In this document: positions 4,775 to 41,564 of the stretch, piece after piece | Layout of the letters: each line of letters starts with the position of its first letter | Position numbering within the stretch: position 1 is the stretch's first letter | Assembly (NCBI GenBank): GCA_964566425.1 | Contig: CAZMIL010000003.1 | Location: forward strand, 1,203-65,202 | Length of the DNA stretch: 64,000 nucleotides | Direction of reading: 5' to 3' | Source: an uncultured Gammaproteobacteria bacterium | GTDB taxonomy: Bacteria > Patescibacteriota > Microgenomatia > UBA1406 > GWC2-37-13 | Made by a program: the position numbers and the translations under genes | Notes under the pieces: generated by a model | What the model saw: the letters and a program-made list of their open reading frames with translations, nothing else | Database searches by the model: none | Told to the model about the DNA's origin: nothing

Positions 4775-6484
4775 ATGGAAGAGATTAATAAAATCAAAGT
4801 TCGACTGCAAAAATTGATAAAAAGTAAGGTCAAGTACCCTTATGCTCGTCCCTTAAAAGTAATAGAGGAGAACGGTAAATATTACCTGATTTTTAGAAAT
4901 TTTAAGCAAAATGAGAGTGATTTAGTCGCTGGCAGCAGTGACGGATTTGATTTTGAGAATCTTGAAACTATCCCCAAACTGGCTAACTTTGAAAGCCGAC
5001 ATCCGGCCAGCGCCATTGTTGCTGAGTACAAAGCACATGGGAAAAAAGTTATATATTATGGCGACCGTCAAATTTTTCTTGCCTACGCAGACGGAAGACA
5101 GCAGTGGGAGACCAACACGCAGCCGCTTATCCTCTCTGCAAATCCAACTGAGGTGGGTGGAGCGTTTTTGTTCTCTAAGGGGCCACTGATTCTTTATTTT
5201 GAAAAATATATCGAAGAGGGCATTACTTACTACCGCGCTTTTTTTGCCCAATTTGATAAAAAAAACCCAGAAAATTTATTGTGGAAAATGAATAGGCCAA
5301 TATGGGATAGTCGTGATTCGTGGCCGCATAAACAAGCCGTTCCTCTTGGGTCGGTCAAACGCGACAAGGAAATTGTTGCCTATTGGTATGTCGGTGAAGA
5401 AGTTATCTATGCGGTTCTGCTCAGAGACTTTTTCTATGAACCCCAAGCCATTGATATTCGTCCTACTTATTTAAAAAAACACCAGCAAAATCCAATTCTT
5501 GCTCCACGAGAGGAAAATGCGTGGGAAGCCTTCACGACGCTTAATCCGGCTGCGGTTTATTTAGACGGTAAGGTCCACCTTTTGTATCGGGCCCAGGGAT
5601 ATGATTATATTTCGACAATCGGATATGCCGTCAGTTCTGACGGTTTATTTATAGACGAGCGCATGAATCAACCGGTCTATGAACCATCTGTGTGGTTTGA
5701 GACAAATACAAGCGGCCGCGCAAATCCGAAACTCGTCTCTGCTGGCGGCTACGGCGGCTGTGAAGATCCGCGGGCGACTGTGCTTGACAAGAGACTTTAT
5801 ATGGTCTATGTCGCTTTTGACGGGTGGTCAAATCTGCGTTTAGCCCTAACATCCATTGATATTTACGACTTTTTAAACCAACGTTGGAATTGGGAGAAAC
5901 CCGTACTTATCTCGCCGCCAGGTGTAATTGATAAAAGCGGATGTCTTTTGCCGGAAAAGATAAACGGCAAATATGTCTTTTTCCATAGAGTTTTCCCCAA
6001 CATTCTTATTGACTATGTAGACGATCTGAACTTTGATGGTAAAAACAATTTCTTGCCAGGCAAATATCAAATAAAAGTGAGGCCAGGGAAGTGGGACAGC
6101 AGAAAAATTGGGGCTGGTGCGCCGCCTCTAAAGACAAAAGATGGCTGGCTGTTGATATATTATGGAGTTGATGATAAAGATGCCTCTAAATATCATATTG
6201 GAGCAATGCTTTTGGATCTAAATGACCCAACGCGCGTTTTGCACAGATCAAATAGACCGATCTTAAGCCCTGAAGAAGAATACGAAGTGACAGGTTTTAA
6301 GCCGGGGATTGCTTATCCTTGCGGGGCAGTAATTATCAAGGATGATTTACTTGTATATTATGGAGCAGCCGATTCTGTGGTTTGCGTGGCAAAAGCAAAT
6401 TTGGCGGCTTTTTTAGCAGAGTTCAAGTCCGATCAAACTCCACACATGAAAAACGTACAAATTAAGGAGGTTGCCTACAGATGA
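4775..6484 (+). CDS. GH130-family glycoside phosphorylase/hydrolase-like protein (C-terminal GH130 module plus a degenerate N-terminal beta-propeller-like half)
   Basis: 569-aa ORF. NPILAPREENAWEAFTTLNPAAVYLDGKVHLLYRAQG, GCEDPR and YYGAADS motifs are typical of GH130. Confidence 0.75.
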   Translation: MEEINKIKVRLQKLIKSKVKYPYARPLKVIEENGKYYLIFRNFKQNESDLVAGSSDGFDFENLETIPKLANFESRHPASAIVAEYKAHGKKVIYYGDRQIFLAYADGRQQWETNTQPLILSANPTEVGGAFLFSKGPLILYFEKYIEEGITYYRAFFAQFDKKNPENLLWKMNRPIWDSRDSWPHKQAVPLGSVKRDKEIVAYWYVGEEVIYAVLLRDFFYEPQAIDIRPTYLKKHQQNPILAPREENAWEAFTTLNPAAVYLDGKVHLLYRAQGYDYISTIGYAVSSDGLFIDERMNQPVYEPSVWFETNTSGRANPKLVSAGGYGGCEDPRATVLDKRLYMVYVAFDGWSNLRLALTSIDIYDFLNQRWNWEKPVLISPPGVIDKSGCLLPEKINGKYVFFHRVFPNILIDYVDDLNFDGKNNFLPGKYQIKVRPGKWDSRKIGAGAPPLKTKDGWLLIYYGVDDKDASKYHIGAMLLDLNDPTRVLHRSNRPILSPEEEYEVTGFKPGIAYPCGAVIIKDDLLVYYGAADSVVCVAKANLAAFLAEFKSDQTPHMKNVQIKEVAYR

Positions 6485-8421
6485 TACTTTCTAGGTCTCC
6501 AAATAATCCTATTCTGAAGCCTAATCCAGCTAATTCTTGGGAAAATAGCGCGACTTTTAATGGGAGTATTATAAAAAGCGATGGGAAATATGTTCTTTTT
6601 TACCGTGCGCTTGGCGACGAACAAAAAATTGAGAACAAAAAATTGCAGGTTTCGGTAATCGGCAAGTCAATAAGTGCCGATGGAGTGAATTTTAATCAAC
6701 GATCTGTATTCCTTTCCCCTAAAGATATTTGGGAAAAATACGGCTGCGAAGATCCGAGAGTTACTTATCTAGAAGGAAAATATTTCATTTTTTATACTGC
6801 TCTTTCCAGTTTTCCTCCCGACTTCAAAAATATTCGTGTCGGTGTGGCAATCTCGCCGGATCTTCAGAATATAACTGAGCGACATTTAGTTACGCCCTTT
6901 AATGCTAAAGCGATGGTTATGTTTCCGGAAAAGATAAACGGCAAATATACTGTTATCTTAACCGTAAATACAGATAATCCGCCAACACATATTGCGCTTG
7001 CACAATTTGAAAAGCTTGAAACCTTGTGGGATTTGAATTATTGGCAGGATTGGTATCAAAATTTAAAACAGCACATCGTCCCACTGCGTAGGGTCAACAG
7101 TGATAATGTAGAGGTTGGCGCAGTGCCGCTAAAGACTTCAGCCGGGTGGGTATTTATTCATTCATATATCAAACATTACTTTAGCGCTAATGTTAAAAGA
7201 GAGTTCAGAATAGAGGCGGTTTTGCTCGACTTAAATGATCCACAAAAAATAATCGGTCGAATAGAAAATCCTCTTTTGATCCCTGAGGAAGAGTACGAAA
7301 AAAAAGGCAACATTTCCGAGGTTGTTTTTCCTGAAGGAGCTTTGGTCCAGGGGAATACGTTACGAGTCTATTACGGTGCCGCAGATACTTACTGTGCTCT
7401 TGCTGAAGCACCTTTTGACGAATTTATGCGCTCTTTTGAAGTGAATCTTCCAGGGACTCTTAAGTGCAACAAATTTCCCCAAAACCCGATCTTAGAGCCT
7501 ATTGTGGAACATTCATGGGAGTCAAAAGCTGTATTTAATCCTGGCGCCGTAGAGCTTGAGAATAAAATTTATCTGATTTATCGTGCAGTGTCCGAAGAGA
7601 ATGTATCACAGTTTGGATTGGCGATAAGCCAAGACGGATTGTTGATTGACGAGCGGATAGATAAACCGATTTATTCCTTGAGAGCAGATTTTGAAAAGCC
7701 CTTAGAAAATGATAAGCCGGGCGGAGTCGAAGATCCAAGAATTACTAAAATCGGCGATATTTTGTACATGTTTTATACAGCTTATAATGGTAAAACTGCT
7801 CGTCTGGCAATCTCAAGCATTGCTGTGACTGATTTTTTGCAGCGTAAATGGGAGGCTTGGTCTTACCCCAAAGTGATTTCTCCCCCAAAAATAATGGATA
7901 AAGACGGGATGATTTTTCCGGAAAAGATAAACGACAAATATGTTATTTTTCACCGCATAGAGCCCAATATTTGTATTGATTTTGTCGAAAACCTTGATTT
8001 TTCAAACGGCTTTTTAAAAACAAAAGGCATTATTACTCCCCACAATCGGACATGGGATGAAAAGAAGATTGGGATAAATACTCCACCTATGAAGACCGCA
8101 GCAGGATGGATCGTTTTTTATCATGGGATAAGTAAAATTGACGGACATTACAGAGTAGGAGCGTTGCTTTTAGATCTTTCAGATGTCACTAAAGTGATCG
8201 GCTGGACGCCGTACCCAATTCTTGAACCGGAGACCGATTTTGAAGAACGCGGCTTAGTAGACAATGTGGTTTTTCCTTGCGGCTATGTCATCCGGCAAGA
8301 TACAATCTATCTCTATTACGGTGGCGCAGATAAAGTAGTCTGCGGCGCAACCGTCTCATTGAAAGCCTTGTTAACCTATCTTCTCAAAAGCACATCCCGA
8401 AAATACCTTGTTTATCCGTAA
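6481..8421 (+). CDS. Tandem double GH130-family protein
   Basis: 646-aa ORF with an ATGA overlap on the upstream gene. There are two copies of NPIL.P....WE..A.FN, GCEDPR/GVEDPR and YYGAAD/YYGGAD. Confidence 0.8.
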   Translation: MILSRSPNNPILKPNPANSWENSATFNGSIIKSDGKYVLFYRALGDEQKIENKKLQVSVIGKSISADGVNFNQRSVFLSPKDIWEKYGCEDPRVTYLEGKYFIFYTALSSFPPDFKNIRVGVAISPDLQNITERHLVTPFNAKAMVMFPEKINGKYTVILTVNTDNPPTHIALAQFEKLETLWDLNYWQDWYQNLKQHIVPLRRVNSDNVEVGAVPLKTSAGWVFIHSYIKHYFSANVKREFRIEAVLLDLNDPQKIIGRIENPLLIPEEEYEKKGNISEVVFPEGALVQGNTLRVYYGAADTYCALAEAPFDEFMRSFEVNLPGTLKCNKFPQNPILEPIVEHSWESKAVFNPGAVELENKIYLIYRAVSEENVSQFGLAISQDGLLIDERIDKPIYSLRADFEKPLENDKPGGVEDPRITKIGDILYMFYTAYNGKTARLAISSIAVTDFLQRKWEAWSYPKVISPPKIMDKDGMIFPEKINDKYVIFHRIEPNICIDFVENLDFSNGFLKTKGIITPHNRTWDEKKIGINTPPMKTAAGWIVFYHGISKIDGHYRVGALLLDLSDVTKVIGWTPYPILEPETDFEERGLVDNVVFPCGYVIRQDTIYLYYGGADKVVCGATVSLKALLTYLLKSTSRKYLVYP

Positions 8422-25122: not shown

Positions 25123-25151
25123 TTGACAAATACTTTTTTTTTCAATACTAT
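25123..25151 (+). promoter_or_regulatory. Promoter TTGACA-N17-TACTAT
   Basis: TTGACA at 25123-25128 and TACTAT at 25146-25151. The TTG start in the ORF track is the -35 box. Confidence 0.45.
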
Positions 25152-25161
25152 TTTAGTAACG

Positions 25162-27033
25162 ATGGCGCAAAAAAAACCGACAAGTACTAGGAGTTTTTAT
25201 CTTCTACTTCTCACTGCACTTCTGGGATTGTTTCTATTTGTAACCTACTACGCTGTCCAACAAATCCAAGTTTATCGTTCCAGCGCGGCCTCGGGCTGTC
25301 AAAAAACTTGTCCTTCTCCTTCAAGAAAATGTTCAGGCGGAAATGTACAAGTTTGCAAGAATCCACCAGGACCAAATAATTGTATAACTTGGTCAACGGT
25401 CAGTTGTGGTGGAAAAGGTTGTTCAAATGGACAATGCAATTCCACTCCTGGCGGAGGCGGCGGAGGCGGAGGAGGCGGCAAACCTTCGCCAACACCTAGT
25501 TGTTTCACGGGGGGTAAACCTTGCACAGGTTCCGGCGCCAAATGTTGTTCAGGAGCTTGTTCAGCCAAAACTAAAACCTGCTTACCAGTAGCAGCGACCG
25601 GACCGGGGGGCTGCGCTCCAGCAGGAGCTATTTGTTCAGGAAGCGGTGCTCAATGTTGCTCCAAGACTTGTAATAGCGGAAAGTGTGCTGTTAAGCAAGC
25701 TTGTGTTCAAGATGGTAAAGCTTGTAGTACCGGTGGGATAGGTTGTTGTAATACTAGTAGTGTCTGTCGTAATAAAAATGCTAATGGTACAGGAATTTGC
25801 GCCGTTCAATGTAAGAGCAAAACAGATGCATCTTCGTGTGTCTCAACGACAGGTTGTCAGTGGAGCGCAAGCACCAATTCATGCAGTGCTTGTAAGGGGA
25901 CTACATGTCCGACAGTCGTTTGTGCGACAATACCCGATCAAACTACTTGTCAGTTATATCCAAGTTGTTCTTGGAATCCTACGACCAATACGTGTGGCAC
26001 TAATTGTTTAAGTGTCACCGATCCAGCCGCTTGTAGTAATACCGCGGGTTGTTCTTGGAATAGCACCACTAACAAATGTGGTGCTATTTGCGAGATGACA
26101 ACTGATCCTGCTCAATGTTTACAATCAGGGTGTTATTGGAGTGGACAATCTTGTTCAAGCACGCCTCCAGCCTGCGGGCAAATTTCCGATCAAGCTTCTT
26201 GTACTACTTCAAGCTACGGTTGTATCTGGGATAGTGCAAATGGCTGTCAGCCTAATTGTCCTTCATTCTTTGATCAAGCCTCTTGTACTTCTGGCGGTGG
26301 CGCAGGTTATTGTAGTTGGAATGGCACCTATTGTGTCCAGGGCTCCGGCGACGGAGGCGGCGGGGACGGCGGCGGAGGAGGCGGCGGTGGTAATCCAACT
26401 CCCACTGTTGGTCCGGGAACGCCCACCCCAACGCCTGGTGGCGGTGGAGGAGGTGGAGGAGGAAATGCTTCAGCCACGCTCAATCTTGCGCTTTCCTTCC
26501 AAGGGATTAATCAAGCCCCGGCTTCAGGAGAAAACAGTATGGATGTGAAAGTGACGCTTACCGGCGGTCCATCAAACCAAACTATTTCTTCCACCGGAAC
26601 CTTTACAGCCGATAGCAACGGTGAATGGACAGGATCGGTTTCCTTTAATAGCGTGGCAACAGGTGGAGGCTACAAAGTCTTAGTTAAAGGAGCAAAACAT
26701 ATCCAGAAGAAAGTTTGTGACGCAACACCTTCAGAGTCGGCCCTCGGTACTTATCGCTGCGGAGATGGCAACATCACTATTAACTCGGGTTCAAACAACT
26801 TTGACTTTTCCGGGATAAAGCTCTTAGTAGGTGACCTTCCACCTCAAGATGGAATAGTTGATTCTTACGACATCTCATTAGTCAGAAATAGTCTTTGTAC
26901 TACAGCCAACCCGAATATCTGCAAGGAATCTGCTACCCTATCTAAAGCCGATCTTAATCTTGATGGCATTGTTGATACACAAGATTATTCTCTCTTGATT
27001 TCATCATTGTCAGTCAAATACGATGAAAATTAA
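25162..27033 (+). CDS. Secreted Cys-rich modular protein with poly-Gly linkers and a C-terminal dockerin-like pair
   Basis: N-terminal TM/signal. At least 6 copies of a ~25-aa (T/S)D..(A/S)C....GC.W.....C...C module. C-terminus GDLPPQDGIVDSYDISLVRNSL ... ADLNLDGIVDTQDYSLLISSL, which are EF-hand-like dockerin repeats. Confidence 0.7.
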   Translation: MAQKKPTSTRSFYLLLLTALLGLFLFVTYYAVQQIQVYRSSAASGCQKTCPSPSRKCSGGNVQVCKNPPGPNNCITWSTVSCGGKGCSNGQCNSTPGGGGGGGGGGKPSPTPSCFTGGKPCTGSGAKCCSGACSAKTKTCLPVAATGPGGCAPAGAICSGSGAQCCSKTCNSGKCAVKQACVQDGKACSTGGIGCCNTSSVCRNKNANGTGICAVQCKSKTDASSCVSTTGCQWSASTNSCSACKGTTCPTVVCATIPDQTTCQLYPSCSWNPTTNTCGTNCLSVTDPAACSNTAGCSWNSTTNKCGAICEMTTDPAQCLQSGCYWSGQSCSSTPPACGQISDQASCTTSSYGCIWDSANGCQPNCPSFFDQASCTSGGGAGYCSWNGTYCVQGSGDGGGGDGGGGGGGGNPTPTVGPGTPTPTPGGGGGGGGGNASATLNLALSFQGINQAPASGENSMDVKVTLTGGPSNQTISSTGTFTADSNGEWTGSVSFNSVATGGGYKVLVKGAKHIQKKVCDATPSESALGTYRCGDGNITINSGSNNFDFSGIKLLVGDLPPQDGIVDSYDISLVRNSLCTTANPNICKESATLSKADLNLDGIVDTQDYSLLISSLSVKYDEN

Positions 27034-27056: not shown

Positions 27057-27740
27057 ATGAAAAAATATGGCAAATATTGGCTGCTACTGGGGATATTTTT
27101 TGCGCTCTTCTTTTTTAGTCCCAAAATAGTTGAAGCCGGTATACTGAAATTTGATACAACGACGGTCAACACAAACGTAGATAGTACCTTTGATGTACAG
27201 GTTGTTGTTGATGCCGCTTCGGATGAAATAAACTCAATTGACGCCTATATCAACTATAACAGTACTCTGCTGCAAGCCCAATCAGTTTCTGCAGGTTCAT
27301 ATTTCCCCTCAATTGCCCAGAATTTGACTACGGGGAGAGTCTATATCGCAGGTTATGTTGACGATCCGGCCACCAGTAAAACGGGTACGGGGACCGTAGC
27401 TACGATAACCTTTAAGGCTTTACAAGAGGGGACTGTTACCTTGAGCTATTTCTGTGATACTAGCGTCAACGAATCTTCCAAAATAATTAAAAACGACATC
27501 AATGCTACCAACGTTATTGACTGTAGCAGCAACGGAAGTACAACGGTGACCATAGCCGCTGCCGGAGGATCAGGCACTGGTACGCCTACACCTACGCCTA
27601 CTTCTACCAATGGGAGTGGAGGAACATCCGATGTGACAGTGACAGAGTTGCCGCGTGCTGGAACGCTGGATAATTTGATTTCAATTTCGGTTCCGGGCTT
27701 GGTTTTGCTTACGGTTGGAATTTTGTTTAAATTCTTGTAG
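27057..27740 (+). CDS. Cohesin-domain surface protein with a C-terminal hydrophobic anchor
   Basis: Signal peptide. FDVQVVVDAASDEINSIDAYINYNSTLL...GTGTVATITFKALQEGTVTLSY is cohesin-like. C-terminus LPRAGT plus TM. Confidence 0.65.
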   Translation: MKKYGKYWLLLGIFFALFFFSPKIVEAGILKFDTTTVNTNVDSTFDVQVVVDAASDEINSIDAYINYNSTLLQAQSVSAGSYFPSIAQNLTTGRVYIAGYVDDPATSKTGTGTVATITFKALQEGTVTLSYFCDTSVNESSKIIKNDINATNVIDCSSNGSTTVTIAAAGGSGTGTPTPTPTSTNGSGGTSDVTVTELPRAGTLDNLISISVPGLVLLTVGILFKFL

Positions 27741-33455: not shown

Positions 33456-34481
33456 CTATTTATTTCCAAACAGATCAATGAACCGATCCCACAAGTTTAG
33501 AGTAAAGCGGTCGACCTGCTCCAATATATTCGCAAGAAAAGAGAATAAATTAAACCGTTGGCTTTGTTTAATTTCCTGAGCAGTGCTGGTATGAGCGCCC
33601 AAGACGCTGCCTTGATCATAAAAATTCAGCTGCCCGCTGGACGTGCTCGCTCCCAGAACATTTGTTTGCGAGAAAAGCTTCGATTGTTGTTGCTCTTCTT
33701 CACTGGTGACTTTTTCCGGCAAAATGAGATAAGAAGCAGAAGGGAGATCTTTTAGGACATTGTTTCCTCTACTGTCATTAACTAAAACCAGACTTGAAGG
33801 TAAAAACTGGATTGTTACCAGACCGGCGCTTTTACCTTTGAAATAGATTGTTCCGAAAGTCCCGTTTTGTCCGAGATAGCCAGGATTGGGGAGACCGCCA
33901 GTAAGCCTTGCCCAGCCGCCCTGATTGTTGATTTCTTTTTGAATAAAGACATTGGCAAAAGAGCCATCGGTAGAAATATTGACAACCTCGAGCTTATTGG
34001 GGTCAAAACCTACATCTGCCTGCACAGCATTGATTGCATTTTGAAGATTGTTGATATCTATTTTCATTGGGAAAACCTCTCCAATCCGGTATTGACCCTT
34101 GGCGGGGATAATGAAGGAAGCAGTCTTAGCGGTGGGTGGGAAACCAAGTTTGAAGAGAATCCGGCTTTCACCATAGACAACTCCGAATGAAACGAAAGCG
34201 AAAAGCAAGATAAGCGCGCCATTCAAAACAGCAGACTTAAAATTTACCGGAGAAAGTCCCTGTTTTTTGATGACTTGTCTTCTACAGAATGGACAAAATG
34301 CTCCCTCACGGAGGGCATTACAGAACAAACAGGGTGTTTTTTTCGGAGCGATCAGCCACCAAAGTGGATAGGCAAAAGCCAAAAAGACTCCAAAGACTGC
34401 CATGAGATGGATTAAAATCCATGATAAAATTATCCACCCAATAATTAAAAATAGTATCTTTAGGTCAAAAGTCGTATCCAT
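33456..34481 (-). CDS. Membrane protein with a zinc-ribbon loop and an extracytoplasmic cohesin-like domain
   Basis: 341 aa with TMs, CLFCN...CPFCRRQ and FPMKIDINNLQNAINAVQADVGFDPNKLEVVNIS...GTFGTIYFKGKSAGLVTIQF. Confidence 0.6.
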   Translation of the reverse strand: MDTTFDLKILFLIIGWIILSWILIHLMAVFGVFLAFAYPLWWLIAPKKTPCLFCNALREGAFCPFCRRQVIKKQGLSPVNFKSAVLNGALILLFAFVSFGVVYGESRILFKLGFPPTAKTASFIIPAKGQYRIGEVFPMKIDINNLQNAINAVQADVGFDPNKLEVVNISTDGSFANVFIQKEINNQGGWARLTGGLPNPGYLGQNGTFGTIYFKGKSAGLVTIQFLPSSLVLVNDSRGNNVLKDLPSASYLILPEKVTSEEEQQQSKLFSQTNVLGASTSSGQLNFYDQGSVLGAHTSTAQEIKQSQRFNLFSFLANILEQVDRFTLNLWDRFIDLFGNK

Positions 34482-34488
34482 CGTTTAT

Positions 34489-35127
34489 TTACCTCCCCAC
34501 ATAGAACATCAAAATTGAAAAATCTCGCAAATCGCAACGGCCATCGCGATTAAGATCACAATCAGCATTGGTAAGATTATTGACTATTGCTTTTGCCTGT
34601 TGTGAAAAATTACTTTGCCAATCATCGACCCAAATTTTGACCACCGCCGGCAAATCGCTGCGCAAAATTCTGCCAATACCATTGATATCAAAAGCCTTTA
34701 AAGCCGGTGGAAGAACAGGTGTAGGGTTGAGGGTAATGGTTGACGTTGTTGCCGTGCCCGGAGTCGGCGTGGATGTAGTCGTGCTACTAGTAACAGAAAC
34801 TGTTATAGTCGGTGTCGGCGTGGGGGTTGAAGAGGGAGTAGGAGTAGCTGTCGGCGTGGGAGTTGCGATGCAACCAGATGTATCGTAACTACAGCTGATA
34901 TCGCAGGTAAGCGTCCCTCCGCCGTAACCTAGACTTGCACAAGTGGCTCCTCCCAGATCAGAATTATCGCAATCTTCTCCGCCTTCTTTGACGTTATTGC
35001 CGCAGATGCTTATTTTGACGGTGGCATTAATTGGACTGGATGAACTCGCGCGAACGTATTGCATAATCAGTAAAAATGCCGCTAAGAGAAAGAGTAAAGC
35101 GAGCAGTGTATTGTTTAAAAATTTCAT
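34489..35127 (-). CDS. Secreted Cys-rich-repeat protein with a TP linker and a dockerin-like C-terminus
   Basis: Signal peptide. CGNNVKEGGEDCDNSDLGGATCASLGYGGGTLTCDISCSYDTSGC. (TP)n linker. FDINGIGRILRSDL ... CDLNRDGRCDLRDFSILMFYV. Confidence 0.6.
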   Translation of the reverse strand: MKFLNNTLLALLFLLAAFLLIMQYVRASSSSPINATVKISICGNNVKEGGEDCDNSDLGGATCASLGYGGGTLTCDISCSYDTSGCIATPTPTATPTPSSTPTPTPTITVSVTSSTTTSTPTPGTATTSTITLNPTPVLPPALKAFDINGIGRILRSDLPAVVKIWVDDWQSNFSQQAKAIVNNLTNADCDLNRDGRCDLRDFSILMFYVGR

Positions 35128-35139
35128 CCATTCGTTTGT

Positions 35140-35772
35140 TTATTCCGGCTTTTTTAAATTAATTTGGATATTAAAGTACTTTCTGATTAAGGTGGCCAAG
35201 ACAATCACTATAATTATTCCCAAAATCCATTGCGGCCAAGGGGCATAGACTTCCCAGAAAGAAATCAATTTGTAATAAAACGCCTGAAAAATATTGGCAG
35301 GAACGATAGTGAAGTAAAGCTTTGAAGCCGCAGCAATCCCAATTGTTGTCACTCCGGCTTTAGCTTTTTGGATGGGCATGCCTTCTAAATAGGCAAAATA
35401 ATTTCCTGGTTTAGTTGCCAACGGCAAATTTAATTTAACGTCGACGACCTGGACTTTACCTGGGTTGAGGCGGAATGTCTGCGGAGAGAAGATAAACCAG
35501 CTCTGAGGGGGACGCAGCCGAGTTTGTTTCTCATGATATTGTATATCAACCGTATAATCGGATGGTTCATCCCCGGTATTTATCACGCTGAAAGGAGGAA
35601 GGTTGTAGATGACGCCCGGTTTGAGTTTTTCTTTGACTTCAATCTTACCTGCGGCAACTCCCACTCCCAATCTAGCCAAAATAAGGGCGGGGAAGAATAG
35701 AAAAAGAAACAAAATAATAATGCCCGTCTTTCTCACTGTTTGAATTATAGTCAAGCCAAAAAAAGAATGCAA
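35140..35772 (-). CDS. Membrane-anchored Ig-like-fold protein (DUF916/DUF3324-like, by inference)
   Basis: 210 aa with an N-terminal signal/TM, LKPGVIYNLPPFSVINTGDEPSDYTV...FRLNPGKVQVVDVKLNLP and C-terminal TMs. Confidence 0.55.
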   Translation of the reverse strand: MHSFFGLTIIQTVRKTGIIILFLFLFFPALILARLGVGVAAGKIEVKEKLKPGVIYNLPPFSVINTGDEPSDYTVDIQYHEKQTRLRPPQSWFIFSPQTFRLNPGKVQVVDVKLNLPLATKPGNYFAYLEGMPIQKAKAGVTTIGIAAASKLYFTIVPANIFQAFYYKLISFWEVYAPWPQWILGIIIVIVLATLIRKYFNIQINLKKPE

Positions 35773-35779
35773 GAGTAGG

Positions 35780-36310
35780 TTAGTAAGCGACAGCCTGAAC
35801 AGTTACATTGACTGACTGCTGAGTATAATCGCTAGAACTAGTGGGAGTGCTTATTTGCAGGTTTAAATTCTTAGTTCCACTTGTTGCTACATTAGTTGCC
35901 AAGGTCTGGTAGCTGGTGGTCAAAGCTGTACCTCCCGAAAAGGTGCTACAAGTATTGTTGAGAAATTTTTGAGTATAGGCGTCAGATGCTGGTGAAGCAG
36001 CTAATGTCCAATTTGCAGAATCTTGACCTTTTATATTAAAAGTTTCAGCTACATTCCCATCATTAGTGACGGTTTGCAGATCGTTTAAGTCACCGGTGCA
36101 AGTACTTTTGCTTGCGCTTGTTGCCAAAGTTCCATAACCAACTGCACCATCAGCCACAGAAACAGAAATATTTTGGACAGTAACAGTAGCAGTGACATTT
36201 GCTGTACCTCCTGCTCTTACTGCATGGGTAAAGACAAGAAGCGCAAGAAACAAAAATACGGGAAAAATTATAAGCAGATAGTTTCGCAGATTAAAATAAT
36301 TTTTTTTCAC
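35780..36310 (-). CDS. Secreted 176-aa protein, paralog of the C-terminal domain of the upstream 506-aa protein (WxL-like, by inference)
   Basis: GTG start and signal peptide. It shares ALTTSYQTLATN, NIKGQ, WTL and QQSV.VT.QAV with 36366..37886. Confidence 0.6.
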   Translation of the reverse strand: MKKNYFNLRNYLLIIFPVFLFLALLVFTHAVRAGGTANVTATVTVQNISVSVADGAVGYGTLATSASKSTCTGDLNDLQTVTNDGNVAETFNIKGQDSANWTLAASPASDAYTQKFLNNTCSTFSGGTALTTSYQTLATNVATSGTKNLNLQISTPTSSSDYTQQSVNVTVQAVAY

Positions 36311-36365
36311 TATATGTTCAAGTAAAGCAACTTTTTAAATTCTTGTCAAGGACAATTGTAAGAAA

Positions 36366-37886
36366 TCAACGTTGGACAGCTTGAATAGTAACATCTACGG
36401 ACTGTTGACTATAACAGTTAGTTGAAGTAGGCGTAGTCAAACGTAAATCGAAATTTTGAGTCCCGTTGGTGCTGATGTTAGTAGCCAAAGTTTGATAAGA
36501 AGTAGTCAAAGCCGTCCAATTAGTCCCCCCATTAGTTGAGAATTCATGGACATACTGATCAGTGCCACTGGTTGCTGATAATGTCCATGGACAGGCTGTA
36601 TTTTGGCCCTTGATATTAAAATCTTCGGCCAGACTTCCGTTGTTGGTCAAAGTTTGAGTATTGTTCAAGCCACTGGAAGTAGTATTTTTGGAACCACCGG
36701 GGGCAACAAAACTGTATGTTACAGCACCATTGGAAACGCTCACAGAGATTATTGCAGTAGTGAAACTCACTTCGCTTCCATAACTGTAACCGGCTGTGTT
36801 ATGGGCATAGGCGCGGCCGTAGTAAGTGGCGCCGCTAGTTAGACCTGTCAAACTAACCGTAAAAGCGCCGGTACCAAAGCTGCCCGCATTTTCGGTATAG
36901 CTGGCATAGCCGGAAGAAGTCGGAGCAACATCACCAGGGAGACTGCGACTTGACGTATCATAGACAAATCCGTTTTTGTCGGCGTTTATCCCCCCTGTAT
37001 CTGTAATGTTGCCGTTGGCTGTAGCGGTTATACCTTTAACATTCGATGCAGCTTGAGTGGTAACCGTGGTTAACTGCGGCGGTTTCAGGGCAAGGGAGAT
37101 TGCGCCTTTATATGTAGTTTGGGCCATCGTGAGTGTTGTCGTAGTATAAGAACCAGCTGTTGCCTTTTCGCCTGTAGCCATACAATTTCCTCCTCCATTT
37201 CCGGCCGTGCTGGTGTTATCACTACGCTCAGTTATATTGGCAAGATCCGCATTGGTCCAAGCAGAGCATTGAGCAGTGCTAGTCCCGTTGAAACTCGAAG
37301 ATATTATCAGGGTCACCAGGGTGTTAGCTACTGTGGTGGTGGCACCCGGGATAGTGCCGGTGGTATCGTTAGCGGCGCTATCATTGCCGCCCGCGCCGGT
37401 ATCCCAGGGATTACCTGTTTGGATGACACCAGAAAAACAATAGATGATACCTTCAGTGTTGTCCCCGGAGTCAGCCACTGTGGGGGCCGTATCTCCGCCA
37501 ACAGTCCGTTTCCAGAAAACTGCCAATCTAGAAGCTGGATTCGTGGCTGCAGTGCCTGCAGACTGGGGAGACCACGTCGGCAGTTCGGAAAAACCCTGAG
37601 CCGAAGAGAGTGAAATAGCCTGGTTTTCTGACGAAACAGCGAGGAGACAGATATCATTAGCCTGCATCGAGGCAGGATAAGGCGGCGCTATAGTTCCGGT
37701 GCCGGCAGTGAAAGTACCCGCGGCCCTGTATGCCGGTAATGGTGCTGTTGCCCGCACTTCCTGGATCTCCGGTGGAATTTTTGGATTCTGCCAAATGACC
37801 GGCCAGCCTGCGAGTATCCAAAAGAGGACGAGGAAAAAGACGAATAAACTTTTAAGCAATTTTTTTACTCTTTTCGTCATATCCAT
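36366..37886 (-). CDS. Membrane-anchored multidomain surface protein (unknown N-domain, FN3-like, C-terminal WxL-like domain)
   Basis: The ORF track gives 36366..37946. The start is moved to ATG 37886 (MDMTKRVKK), just after TATAAT (37896-37891). TM FVFFLVLFWILAGW. FN3-like ...ATYYGRAYAHNTAGYSYGSEVSFTT. Confidence 0.65.
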   Translation of the reverse strand: MDMTKRVKKLLKSLFVFFLVLFWILAGWPVIWQNPKIPPEIQEVRATAPLPAYRAAGTFTAGTGTIAPPYPASMQANDICLLAVSSENQAISLSSAQGFSELPTWSPQSAGTAATNPASRLAVFWKRTVGGDTAPTVADSGDNTEGIIYCFSGVIQTGNPWDTGAGGNDSAANDTTGTIPGATTTVANTLVTLIISSSFNGTSTAQCSAWTNADLANITERSDNTSTAGNGGGNCMATGEKATAGSYTTTTLTMAQTTYKGAISLALKPPQLTTVTTQAASNVKGITATANGNITDTGGINADKNGFVYDTSSRSLPGDVAPTSSGYASYTENAGSFGTGAFTVSLTGLTSGATYYGRAYAHNTAGYSYGSEVSFTTAIISVSVSNGAVTYSFVAPGGSKNTTSSGLNNTQTLTNNGSLAEDFNIKGQNTACPWTLSATSGTDQYVHEFSTNGGTNWTALTTSYQTLATNISTNGTQNFDLRLTTPTSTNCYSQQSVDVTIQAVQR

Positions 37887-38015
37887 CTTAATTATAGCGA
37901 AATTTTGTGGTAACGAAATCAATAAGCCTGCATCGTAGGATTGCACATCTCGAGAAACATCTCGAGCTTTCTTCTAATTGAACCTTTCGCAAATTTTTGT
38001 TATAACTAAACTTTC

Positions 38016-38804
38016 ATGATTAAAGTTAGCAATTTGGTGAGAAAATTCGGCGATTTAACAGCAGTTAATGATATTTCTTTTAATGTAGCAGAGGGTGAGA
38101 TCTTTGCTTTTCTCGGACCAAATGGAGCAGGGAAAACGACCACAATTAAAATGTTGACAACTTTACTACATCCCACTTCCGGGACAATTGAAATTAACGG
38201 TTTTAATCCAGTCACCCAGCAAGATCAAGTGCGGAAATCTTTTGGCATTGTTTTCCAAGACCCCAGTCTTGACGATGAACTAACAGCTTTTGAAAATATG
38301 GAATTTCACGGCGTTTTGTATAGAGTGCCACGTGATTTAAGAAGAAAACGGATTGAAGAATTGATGAAAATTGTCGAGTTGTGGGACAGAAGAGGCGATT
38401 TGGTCAAAACTTTTTCCGGCGGGACTAAACGCAGACTGGAAATTGCCAGAGGCTTAATCCATCATCCTCGAATTTTTTTTCTTGATGAACCGACTCTCGG
38501 TCTTGATCCGCAAACCAGAAATCATATGTGGAATTATGTTAAGGACTTAAATCTTAAAGAAAAAATTACCGTCTTTTTTACCACGCATTATATGGAGGAG
38601 GCAGAGCGACAGGCCCAAAGGATTGCGATTATAGATTATGGAAAGATTGTCGCGCGAGGAACGCCCCACGAACTGAAAAAGCAGACGCAAAGCAAAACCT
38701 TAGAGGATGCTTTTCTGAAATTAACCGGCCACGCCATCCGCGAAGAAGAAGCAAGCGGCATAGAGCATTTGCGGATACGGGCCAGAGTCTGGAGGGGACA
38801 CTAA
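38016..38804 (+). CDS. ABC transporter ATP-binding protein (ABC-2/DrrA-like)
   Basis: GPNGAGKTT, FSGGTKRRLEIA and FFLDEPT. Confidence 0.9.
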   Translation: MIKVSNLVRKFGDLTAVNDISFNVAEGEIFAFLGPNGAGKTTTIKMLTTLLHPTSGTIEINGFNPVTQQDQVRKSFGIVFQDPSLDDELTAFENMEFHGVLYRVPRDLRRKRIEELMKIVELWDRRGDLVKTFSGGTKRRLEIARGLIHHPRIFFLDEPTLGLDPQTRNHMWNYVKDLNLKEKITVFFTTHYMEEAERQAQRIAIIDYGKIVARGTPHELKKQTQSKTLEDAFLKLTGHAIREEEASGIEHLRIRARVWRGH

Positions 38805-40958: not shown

Positions 40959-41564
40959 ATGGCTCAAGAATTGCAACATGGGCACCCGGTTATCAGAAGA
41001 ATTTACTTATATATTTTCATTCTGACGTTTCTACTTTTATTTGGTTTTATAGTTCTTTATTTTGCTTTAGTTCAACCTTCTTCTCAACCAGAACAAACAA
41101 ACCTTAGCCTTTCACCGACAGCTTTGCAAACTGAAAATAAAGGGACTTTGACGATGGCGGTGCAAAACAATCAACTGGCGGAAGTAAGTATGGGGCAAAC
41201 CTTTAATTTGCTGGTTTCGGCCTCGGCAGAAGACAGTAAAATCGTCGGTTATGATGTGCTGTTAAATTATGACAAAAAGGCTTTTAGCGTCGGGAAAGCA
41301 ACCACTCCTCTGCAATCCTTTCAAGTTTTCTCCAGTGACCATAATTCATATATGACCTTTACAGGAGCCTTAAATGTTAGCGGAGCACCGGTAGTTCTTT
41401 CCCAGACTCCTATTTTAACTGTCCCTTTTACCGCAAAACAAAAAGGCAAATATACTTTCAGCATTTTGCCAAAAGCGCAAAATGAATTGACTAAACTGGT
41501 GGAAGCGCAAACGACCAGATTGTTTGCTCCACAAGTCGCTACCTTACAAGTGACGGTGAACTGA
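40959..41564 (+). CDS. Membrane-anchored cohesin-like domain protein
   Basis: N-terminal TM. FNLLVSASAEDSKIVGYDVLLNYDKKAFSV...ILTVPFTAKQKGKYTFSI. Confidence 0.55.
   Translation: MAQELQHGHPVIRRIYLYIFILTFLLLFGFIVLYFALVQPSSQPEQTNLSLSPTALQTENKGTLTMAVQNNQLAEVSMGQTFNLLVSASAEDSKIVGYDVLLNYDKKAFSVGKATTPLQSFQVFSSDHNSYMTFTGALNVSGAPVVLSQTPILTVPFTAKQKGKYTFSILPKAQNELTKLVEAQTTRLFAPQVATLQVTVN

Follow-up and report, generated by a model that had tools for sequence, protein, structure and literature searches.

A five-gene patescibacterial cassette that may encode an usher-less donor-strand pilus with a dockerin-cohesin anchor

Introduction

What kind of surface structure do five tightly packed genes of an uncultured patescibacterium specify? 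The genes, called (a) to (e) in their order on the minus strand, lie in a 64,000-nucleotide stretch of DNA (the window; GenBank assembly GCA_964566425.1, contig CAZMIL010000003.1, positions 1,203 to 65,202). The genome that carries them comprises 688 kb in 24 contigs and is 92.5% complete. The nearest homologs of the cassette proteins belong to Levybacteria and other Microgenomates of the candidate phyla radiation (CPR, Patescibacteria). CPR bacteria are ultra-small and live attached to host cells. To our knowledge, their means of attachment are largely unknown.

An earlier reading, made from the letters and their open reading frames (ORFs) alone (the sequence-only reading), described a five-gene surface operon resembling the WxL/DUF916 (Csc) clusters of Firmicutes, joined to a cohesin-dockerin pair. 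All five ORFs are present on the minus strand at the positions given in Table 1. The close spacing noted in that reading is borne out, with gaps of 55, 7, 12, and 7 nt from (a) to (e). The present work rests on sequence, predicted folds, and comparative genomics; folds, sequence relationships, motifs, gene conservation, and co-variation were computed. The interpretation favored here is an usher-less, chaperone-guided donor-strand pilus whose adhesin tip would be exchangeable and whose membrane anchor would be a dockerin-cohesin pair. This model is considered probable as a whole. Its fibre and chaperone are very likely correct, and its dockerin-cohesin anchor is favored only slightly.

The Small Candidate Pilin and a Proposed Division of Roles Among Subunits

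The argument for a fibre starts with the small protein (b). Its AlphaFold2 (AF2) model has a mean predicted local distance difference test (pLDDT) score of 88.7, rising above 95 for residues 50-176. In a Foldseek search of the PDB, every top match to this model is a donor-strand-complemented fibre. The matches comprise the Pyrodictium cannulae (9h8b), the FimA type 1 rod (8psv), CfaB (4y2n), CupE (8cio), PapE with its donor peptide (1n12), the Pyrobaculum bundling pili ABP (7ueg), Csu (7zl4), and the Sulfolobus thread Saci_0406 (7pnb), mostly with Foldseek probabilities of 0.9-1.0. The candidate donor segment at the mature N-terminus lies outside the beta-sandwich and is unstructured, with low pLDDT, in the AF2 monomer. 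In an alignment of 50 sequences, A41, T42, Q46, and S49 are invariant, and the mature N-terminus has the consensus A-A-x-T-A-T-V-T-A-T-V-T-V-Q-N. By its predicted fold, (b) is a pilin-type subunit. Its 612 homologs (50-70% identity) are all unannotated and all from CPR. Neither (a) nor (b) is matched in Pfam or NCBIfam scans, and only noise was obtained when PDB sequences were searched with profiles of the (b) and (c) families.

The same domain forms the C-terminus of the large protein (a). The sequence-only reading had recognized a domain common to (a) and (b), and the two are 54% identical over 128 aa (E = 6e-38). The subunits differ in whether a donor strand accompanies that domain. A donor motif defined as [VI]x[AST]T[VI]x[VILA] was counted near the N-terminus of the proteins encoded in the cassette loci. 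It is present in 70/79 small pilins and 32/67 (d) proteins. None of the large proteins carries it, either near the N-terminus (0/60) or in the 22 aa ahead of the pilin domain (0/32), and it is likewise missing from the cohesin proteins (0/79). The frequency is 3/84 for the (c) chaperones and 12/1492 (0.8%) for all other ORFs in the loci, taken as background. Within the genome of the window, 7 of 943 ORFs have the motif, (b) and (d) among them. This pattern suggests a division of labor. A subunit such as (b), which would both accept and donate a strand, fits the shaft. The large protein, which would accept a strand but could not donate one, fits the tip, and (d), which would only donate, fits a terminator.

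The sequence-only reading also placed an internal promoter between (a) and (b). The string TTGACA-N17-TTTACT is present, and such sites are enriched across the family. Ahead of the small pilin gene, a sigma-70-like site scoring at least 10 of 12 occurs in 20/46 loci, against 3.1 expected from shuffles, and the strong sites in these 46 loci mostly carry a perfect TTGACA. At the window locus taken singly, promoter-like sites are no commoner than chance (10 found vs. 8.8 +/- 3.2 expected). Taken alone, the string at this locus is not significant. A promoter at this position would fit a higher output of the shaft subunit.

The Membrane-Anchored Chaperone Candidate

The AF2 model of (c) (pLDDT 82.5) contains one Ig-like domain at about residues 34-158, followed by an amphipathic helix (161-176) and a transmembrane (TM) helix (~179-200). 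The hydrophobic stretch at 175-204 is followed by a basic tail (RKYFNIQINLKKPE). WxLIP proteins likewise end in a TM helix and a basic tail. The model and the hydrophobicity profile agree with the N-terminal signal, Ig-like domain, and C-terminal helix that the sequence-only reading assigned to this protein. Foldseek matches of (c) include OCRL ASH, HYDIN, Caf1M, FaeE, DraB, SafB, CfaA, and FimC (E ~1e-7 to 1e-5), with the chaperones Caf1M, FaeE, and DraB at E ~1e-6 to 1e-5. At rank 50 stands 9i25_C, the Enterococcus faecium WxLIP bound to a long WxL protein (E = 6e-5).

At the sequence level, (c) matches PapD_N (PF00345) with 15.8 bits against a cut-off of 23 (E = 0.014). Weak, below-cut-off PapD_N matches recur in 30/50 members of its family, the best at E = 6e-4. 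A few of the 512 close homologs are named "P pilus assembly chaperone PapD" by the Joint Genome Institute (JGI). Against 1.84 billion representative proteins, the (c)-family profile matches 745 clusters (50% identity) at E <= 1e-3, and the best 150 of the 745 all belong to the (c) family itself.

In the candidate donor segment of (c), G140, G145, A147-A149, L152, Y153, and F154 are invariant. Residues 131-150 have a mean pLDDT of only 62-70 in the monomer model. Such low confidence in the first half of the conserved segment is as expected for a strand that is ordered only on its partner. In the profile chain described below, the segment aligns with the part of DUF916 in which the published donor hairpin of ElrE seems to lie. 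Two loci depart from the usual single chaperone gene. In L008 the gene is divided into two ORFs (6016-6234 and 6346-6669; 72 and 107 aa) and is probably disrupted, and in L049 two chaperone genes (4781-5386 and 5956-6681) flank the small pilin gene.

The Large Protein and Its Payload

The longest frame of (a) starts with GTG. An ATG at 37886 (M21) gives a protein of 506 aa, the length reported in the sequence-only reading. This start is the more plausible one because it yields a normal basic and hydrophobic N-terminus, and the L056 ortholog has 500 aa. A single N-terminal hydrophobic segment (residues 27-53) could be a signal peptide or an anchor. The payload domain that follows has no Pfam or NCBIfam match. 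Its identity as a beta-1,3-glucanase was considered and not accepted, since only weak PDB sequence matches were obtained (E = 0.15). The FN3-like module described earlier is recognizable as a motif, and modules homologous to this region adjoin Pfam fn3 domains in L019, L029, and L047, but no Pfam domain matches (a) itself at E <= 1.

Among the 81 annotated loci, the large orthologs vary in length between 228 and 1770 aa and share no part except the C-terminal domain. Their payloads are mutually unrelated and include fn3, BNR, Laminin_G_3, DUF7483, and DUF2341 domains. A variable payload ahead of a constant acceptor domain suggests that (a) is a tip adhesin.

The Terminator Candidate and Its Probable Cohesin Partner

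After its signal peptide, (d) has a Cys-rich DUF4215-like module (residues 42-86), a Thr/Pro linker, and a dockerin; an acceptor domain is lacking. Profiles specific to the Cys module and dockerin of this family match no other protein in the genome. A few residues past the signal peptide, the family consensus reads [VI]-x-A-T-V-[KR]-[IL]-S-[VI]-C-G. The N-terminal strand of the pilin shares the core of this consensus, V-x-A-T-V-x-V. These features suggest, from sequence, that (d) is a chain terminator.

The dockerin-like end seen in the sequence-only reading scores just below the Pfam cut-off for Dockerin_1, and longer (d) orthologs in L052, L034, and L065, which carry a Big_6 Ig domain, reach 30-33 bits, above it. 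The second EF-hand-like loop of the window protein, DLNRDGRCDLRD, is canonical, and the first, DINGIGRILRSD, lacks Asp at position 5.

The cohesin-like ectodomain earlier ascribed to (e) passes the Pfam test for Cohesin (PF00963), with 29.2 bits against a cut-off of 24.1. From its N-terminus, (e) consists of two TM helices, a CxxC...CxxC (zinc) ribbon (51-68), a TM helix (81-104), the outward-facing cohesin, and a conserved C-terminal tail. Across the loci, the type of (d) co-varies with the type of cohesin. Short (d) proteins are paired with the (e)-type cohesin, which has three TM helices and the zinc ribbon, in 27/29 loci, and long (d) proteins with other cohesin types in 20/27. On this evidence, (e) is most likely the socket for (d).

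The window encodes further proteins of these kinds, all on the plus strand. A 636-aa secreted protein with poly-Gly runs and many four-Cys modules ends in a dockerin-like pair (read by eye), and no pilin-like donor motif was found at its N-terminus. Directly after it comes a cohesin protein of 227 aa that has an anchor at its C-terminus. In Pfam, the third cohesin protein of the window scores 26 bits. The second dockerin-cohesin pair implies that cohesin-dockerin is a general surface clip in this organism, to which only (d) adds a pilin-like strand.

Conservation of the Cassette Across the CPR

The sequence-only reading had called for a survey of gene neighborhoods. A scan with the (c) profile, using one genome per species, returned 80 loci; with L001 added, 81 were annotated. 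Annotation used phmmer with pieces of the window proteins, so that the counts are lower bounds, and neighbors were counted only in loci with enough flanking sequence. The co-occurrence proved to be conserved. A small pilin adjoins the chaperone in 70/74 loci, a Cys-rich (d) ortholog lies directly downstream of the chaperone in 63/74, and at least one cohesin protein follows downstream in 52/65. A large upstream protein with a C-terminal pilin domain is present in 42/52, and all five genes are found together in 27/47.

The loci span the Levy-, Davies-, Woese-, Roizman-, Collier-, Beckwith-, Ames-, Pace-, Moran-, Magasanik-, and Nomurabacteria, and further the Vogel-, Falkow-, and Wildermuthbacteria, WWE3, Dojkabacteria/WS6, Saccharibacteria, and Minisyncoccia. 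Their distribution is patchy. Strong matches occur in 7/401 evenly sampled genomes of the phylum, and none were found in the relatives of the window genome from the same family or class listed in that sample. A pattern that is patchy yet wide across distant CPR classes suggests frequent loss or lateral transfer. Several contigs with the cassette (L005, L008, L009, L030, L058, and others) belong to metagenome-assembled genomes labeled Gammaproteobacteria, Pseudomonadales, Chitinophagaceae, or Bathyarchaeia. These labels are probably labeling or binning errors.

Relationship to the Elr Pilus and WxL Proteins

In Enterococcus faecalis, the elr WxL cluster builds a pilus by chaperone-guided donor-strand exchange (Sleutel et al., 2026; bioRxiv 10.64898/2026.10.17.759780). 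There, the DUF916/DUF3324 protein ElrE, which has a TM helix, is the membrane-anchored chaperone. The tip adhesin, ElrA, ends in a WxL domain and lacks a donor strand; the terminator, ElrB, has only a donor strand and an LPxTG motif (Sleutel et al., 2026). The cassette follows the same plan. Like ElrA, (a) combines a variable payload with a C-terminal pilin domain that lacks a donor strand; (c) resembles ElrE as a candidate membrane-anchored Ig-like chaperone; and (d) resembles ElrB as a putative donor-strand-only terminator. The acceptor and donor logic of ElrA/ElrD/ElrB is that proposed for (a)/(b)/(d), and it recurs in PamT/PamA-B/PamR of the Pam pilus described below. The proposed anchor differs, being a non-covalent dockerin-cohesin contact rather than LPxTG and sortase, and so does the host, a patescibacterium. 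The WxL chaperone-pilin system has been reported as confined to Bacillota with a small satellite in Actinomycetota (Sleutel et al., 2026). The analogy to Csc/WxL clusters drawn in the sequence-only reading holds for architecture and mechanism. Membership in the Pfam WxL and DUF916 families fails the direct sequence tests.

For the pilin domain, the proposed identity with WxL was not sustained. Pfam WxL (PF13731) has no match in (a) or (b) at E <= 1 and none genome-wide at E <= 10, and it is missing from the 25 families (of 29) that were listed for 50 pilin-family members. WxL and DUF916/DUF3324 profiles were assembled from ElrD, translated from the construct in the preprint, and from annotated Enterococcus and Lactococcus plasmid loci. 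In hhalign, the CPR pilin profile matches the 12-sequence WxL profile with 1% probability, over only 17 columns around G.WTL. The pilin has one conserved N-W-T-L, in which W101 and L103 are invariant, and no second W-x-L motif at its C-terminus (V-T-V-Q-A-V-A). The 50 best of the 731 Foldseek matches of (b) include no WxL chain. Because the direct hhalign comparison is at background, homology of the pilin to WxL is not established, and only local motifs line up.

The chaperone gives a different picture. The DUF916-like character proposed for (c) stands as a remote relationship, and the second domain that DUF916 proteins carry is missing. Direct tests are negative. Neither PF06030 (DUF916) nor DUF3324 matches (c) at E <= 1, DUF916 is missing from the 25 families (of 28) that were listed for 50 members of the (c) family, and a direct hhalign comparison of the CPR chaperone with DUF916 reaches 2%. 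AF2 shows one beta domain (residues 37-156) and then two helices, with no DUF3324 (PF11797) domain, and the family is ~205 aa long, vs. ~350 aa for WxLIP. ORFs of 310-345 aa were also matched, more weakly (E = 1e-6 to 1e-11), in the phylum scan with the (c) profile. These represent a bridging CPR family with two beta domains and a C-terminal TM helix, which matches Pfam WxLIP_PGBD (PF06030, formerly DUF916). L094:7859-8830 (+) passes the cut-off for that family with 31.7 bits, other matches being L094:5680-6711 (+) and L093:5357-6373 (-), and one bridging protein also matches WxLIP_HBD (PF11797, DUF3324) with 21.2 bits. In hhalign, the (c) family matches the bridging family at 98.5% (E = 3e-15, 123 columns), and the bridging family matches Bacillota DUF916/DUF3324 at 97.3% (E = 2.7e-11, 191 columns). 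With a bridging alignment of 120 sequences, the two steps reach 95.7% and 93.7%, the latter over 293 columns, and negative controls remain at or below 2%. Together with the Foldseek match to 9i25_C, this chain indicates at the level of sequence profiles that (c), with its one domain, is remotely related to the DUF916 and Pam-type chaperones. The direct tests do not place the cluster in the Pfam WxL, DUF916/DUF3324, or PapD families. Fold similarity and conserved co-occurrence, two of the points whose absence would have counted against the sequence-only reading, were both found, so that it stands unrefuted on its own terms.

Relationship to the Pam Pilus and Other Known Systems

In choosing Csc clusters as the parallel, the sequence-only reading missed a nearer relative. 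Pam pili of Candidatus Mycosynbacter amalyticus and other CPR bacteria have been described by cryo-electron microscopy (cryo-EM) (Troman et al., 2026; PMC13278184/bioRxiv 10.64898/2026.03.03.709456). Pam pilins have two truncated Ig-like domains and donate the linker strand that joins the N- and C-terminal domains. The chaperones PamC and PamD are PapD-like, have two domains each, and are TM-anchored. PamT forms the tip, and the chain is terminated by PamR, which has an N-terminal strand and a TM helix (Troman et al., 2026). The cassette shares its superphylum with Pam and would share an usher-less donor-strand-exchange fibre. Also alike are a candidate PapD-like chaperone tethered by a C-terminal TM helix, a putative tip subunit without a donor strand, and a proposed terminator that would insert its N-terminal strand and tie the fibre to the membrane. 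However, (b) has one domain (~140 aa when mature) and an N-terminal donor strand, whereas Pam pilins have two domains and a linker strand. Likewise, (c) has one Ig domain and PamC/D two, and large variable tip payloads distinguish the cassette. PamR has its own TM helix, whereas the dockerin of (d) would meet a separate membrane cohesin.

The bridging CPR chaperones (~330 aa) have as neighbors secreted two-domain proteins (260-494 aa) whose C-termini read ...AGSY.TTLT(Y/F).AT..F. Compared by published description only, the bridging family and its neighbors fit PamC/D and the Pam pilins. Pam-like subunits match neither WxL nor the CPR pilin in hhalign (~1%), and PDB sequence searches with them gave no match. 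Besides the cassette, which is present once, the genome of the window has four genes for two-domain, TM-anchored chaperone-like proteins of 299-354 aa (contigs C16 5051-6938 (-); C19 202-1242 (-) and 7277-8278 (+)), flanked on C16 and C19 by secreted subunits of 260-494 aa ending in ...AGTY..TLTF.AT..F. These clusters look like Pam-type systems, which would mean that the genome carries both kinds.

Chaperone-usher systems (Fim, Pap, Caf1, CFA/I, and Csu) resemble the cassette through the weak PapD_N matches of the (c) family. They differ in that (c) is one-domain and membrane-anchored, that all its PapD_N scores are below the cut-off, and that the cassette belongs to a cell with no usher and no outer membrane. 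A classical chaperone-usher pilus was rejected, since the usher family (PF00577) has no match in the genome at E <= 1. A sortase pilus was rejected because an LPxTG-like motif is missing from all five proteins; three sortases are encoded at other sites in the genome.

The cohesin-dockerin pair is known mainly from cellulosomes. The type I pair is comparable in that the cohesin scores above the Pfam cut-off, that the dockerin has two EF-hand-like loops, and that a plug-and-socket contact between a secreted and a cell-bound protein is proposed. It is unlike the cassette in that the latter has no enzymes and no scaffoldin, that (e) is an integral membrane protein with a zinc-ribbon loop, and that the proposed cargo is a pilus base. 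The absence of enzymes led to rejection of a cellulosome-like interpretation.

Assembly Model and Alternative Explanations

In the favored model, the pilus would be built on the single membrane of the cell, and Sec would export all five proteins. Held by its C-terminal helix, (c) would lend a strand, probably residues 137-157, to the incomplete Ig fold of a subunit. The large protein would enter first and occupy the distal tip, because it has an acceptor domain without a donor strand, and would display its variable adhesin payload there. Copies of (b) would then be added at the base, the N-terminal strand of each (T-A-N-V-T-A-T-V-T-V-Q-N) entering the groove of the previous subunit and displacing the chaperone. 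With the same strand motif and no acceptor domain, (d) would end the chain. Its C-terminal dockerin would plug into the outward-facing cohesin of (e) and so tie the fibre to the cell, in place of the LPxTG/sortase route of Elr or the TM helix of PamR. The promoter ahead of (b) would supply the shaft subunit in excess.

Several points weigh against this model. Polymerization, the order of the subunits, strand donation by (c) in a chaperone-subunit complex, and the contact between (d) and (e) are all inferred. In Foldseek, the predicted structure of (b) obtains E-values no better than 4e-3, which are modest, and TM-scores of 0.4-0.5. The hydrophobic segment of (a) is long and has no evident cleavage site; if uncleaved, (a) would be anchored, which does not fit a tip. 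For (d), the strict donor motif is present in only about half of the orthologs, and the window protein scores 20.6 bits for Dockerin_1 (PF00404), below the cut-off of 22.9 (E = 5e-4). In ~15-20% of well-flanked loci, (d) or a cohesin is undetected, so that the anchor is not obligatory. Lastly, the genome has a second dockerin-cohesin pair that is not linked to the pilus.

Some of these points are accommodated by an alternative that retains the chaperone-pilin fibre and denies (d) and (e) the role of basal anchor. In one variant, (d) might be a separate Cys-rich surface protein that is held by (e) and merely co-transcribed; in another, an adaptor to other cohesin partners, possibly on another cell. 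The second dockerin-cohesin pair and the third cohesin protein, which have no pilus link, would agree with it, as would the loci that consist of a pilin-chaperone core without a detected (d) or cohesin and the shortness of the donor-like motif in (d). Such a role is nonetheless unlikely. It leaves unexplained why (d) directly follows the chaperone in 63/74 loci, why it has the pilin N-terminal motif at the same place past the signal peptide, and why (d) and cohesin types co-vary. Elr and Pam, moreover, both have a donor-strand-only terminator at the equivalent functional position.

A static surface complex, in which (c) would permanently hold (a) and (b) by strand complementation, corresponds to the older Csc/WxLIP model, which was accepted for WxL clusters until 2026 (PMC10599100). 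It gains from the fact that polymerization is not directly seen here. However, a conserved free N-terminal strand on (b), with none on (a), would be needless in a static complex, and the fold matches of (b) are polymerizing pilins. For WxL clusters the static model has since given way to a pilus, and related CPR Pam proteins form filaments by cryo-EM, which together make a static arrangement quite improbable. Barely plausible is a polysaccharide-using complex of the cellulosome or Csc kind, in which cohesin-dockerin would scaffold enzymes. Both modules are present, the original proposal for Csc clusters was an action on plant polysaccharides, and some ortholog payloads are lectin-like or BNR-like. 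Neither the five proteins nor the conserved cassette contains a glycoside hydrolase or catalytic domain, however, and the genome measures only 688 kb. Moreover, the family-specific profile finds one dockerin protein genome-wide, the second, that of the 636-aa protein, having been read by eye.

Implications

If the favored model is correct, CPR bacteria would gain a modular fibre made of a conserved assembly core, an exchangeable adhesin tip, and a plug-in anchor. The cohesin-dockerin pair would acquire a new role at a pilus base, possibly Ca2+-dependent and releasable, and a single membrane-tethered PapD-like domain would suffice for strand-exchange assembly. The profile chain ties CPR chaperones to DUF916/WxLIP and would connect Pam with Elr/WxL, which questions the restriction of the system to Bacillota. 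A broader claim can be made only tentatively, and we lean against it at present. It states both that the non-covalent cohesin-dockerin joint is the load-bearing membrane anchor of donor-strand-exchange pili in many CPR lineages and that one-domain CPR, Pam-type, and WxLIP chaperones form one ancient family of membrane-anchored pilus chaperones. Were the single chaperone family real, usher-less chaperone-guided assembly would be a shared trait of single-membrane bacteria beyond Bacillota.

The sequence-only reading regarded the coupling to cohesin and dockerin as undescribed, and this still stands in the literature searched. Full-text searches turned up no report of a dockerin joined to a donor-strand pilus. 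The Pam paper mentions none of cohesin, dockerin, WxL, and DUF916 (PMC13278184), the Elr preprint mentions neither cohesin nor dockerin (10.64898/2026.10.17.759780), and the two do not cite each other. In the same literature, neither the one-domain chaperone nor dockerin-cohesin anchoring was found described, and the fibre type resembles Pam and Elr/WxL.

Features of the Locus and Its Surroundings

Table 1. Features of the cassette and related elements in the window (coordinates in nucleotides of the window; residues numbered in each protein, those of (a) in the longest frame).
Feature	Position	Strand	Description
(a) candidate tip adhesin	36366-37946	-	longest ORF 526 aa, GTG start
(a) N-terminal payload domain	37077..37766	-	residues 61-290; in one other locus only, L056 (E = 1e-114)
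(a) FN3-like module	36753..37076	-	residues 291-398; motif level only (...LTGLTSGATYYGRAYAHN...SEVSFTT)
(a) C-terminal pilin-type acceptor domain	36369..36752	-	residues 399-526; without preceding donor strand
Candidate internal promoter	36349-36321	-	TTGACA-N17-TTTACT; ahead of (b), between (a) and (b)
(b) candidate major (shaft) pilin	35780-36310	-	176 aa; signal peptide 1-33; beta-sandwich core 48-176
(b) candidate donor strand	36170..36211	-	mature residues 34-47 (GGTANVTATVTVQN); conserved, outside the fold
(c) candidate membrane-anchored one-domain PapD-like chaperone	35140-35772	-	210 aa
(c) candidate chaperone donor segment	35302..35364	-	residues 137-157 (KAGVTTIGIAAASKLYFTIV); near-invariant G.TTIGVAAAAKLYF
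(d) candidate chain terminator and anchor adaptor	34489-35127	-	212 aa; signal peptide 1-27
(d) donor-strand-like mature N-terminus	35005..35031	-	residues 33-41 (INATVKISI); family consensus
(d) C-terminal dockerin	34492..34707	-	residues 141-212; two EF-hand-like loops, DINGIGRILRSD and DLNRDGRCDLRD
(e) membrane cohesin protein	33456-34481	-	341 aa
(e) cohesin domain	33708..34133	-	residues 117-258; Pfam and family profile (E = 5e-62)
Secreted dockerin-like protein	25123-27033	+	636 aa
Cohesin protein of the second pair	27057-27740	+	227 aa
Third cohesin protein	40959-41564	+	
Palindromic element	37949-37966	+	CTCGAGAAACATCTCGAG

Just upstream of the longest (a) frame, between the operon and a divergent ABC transporter gene at 38016, lies the element CTCGAGAAACATCTCGAG. 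It consists of two CTCGAG palindromes 12 nt apart. The element was scored as terminator-like by a scan, and it could be an operator.

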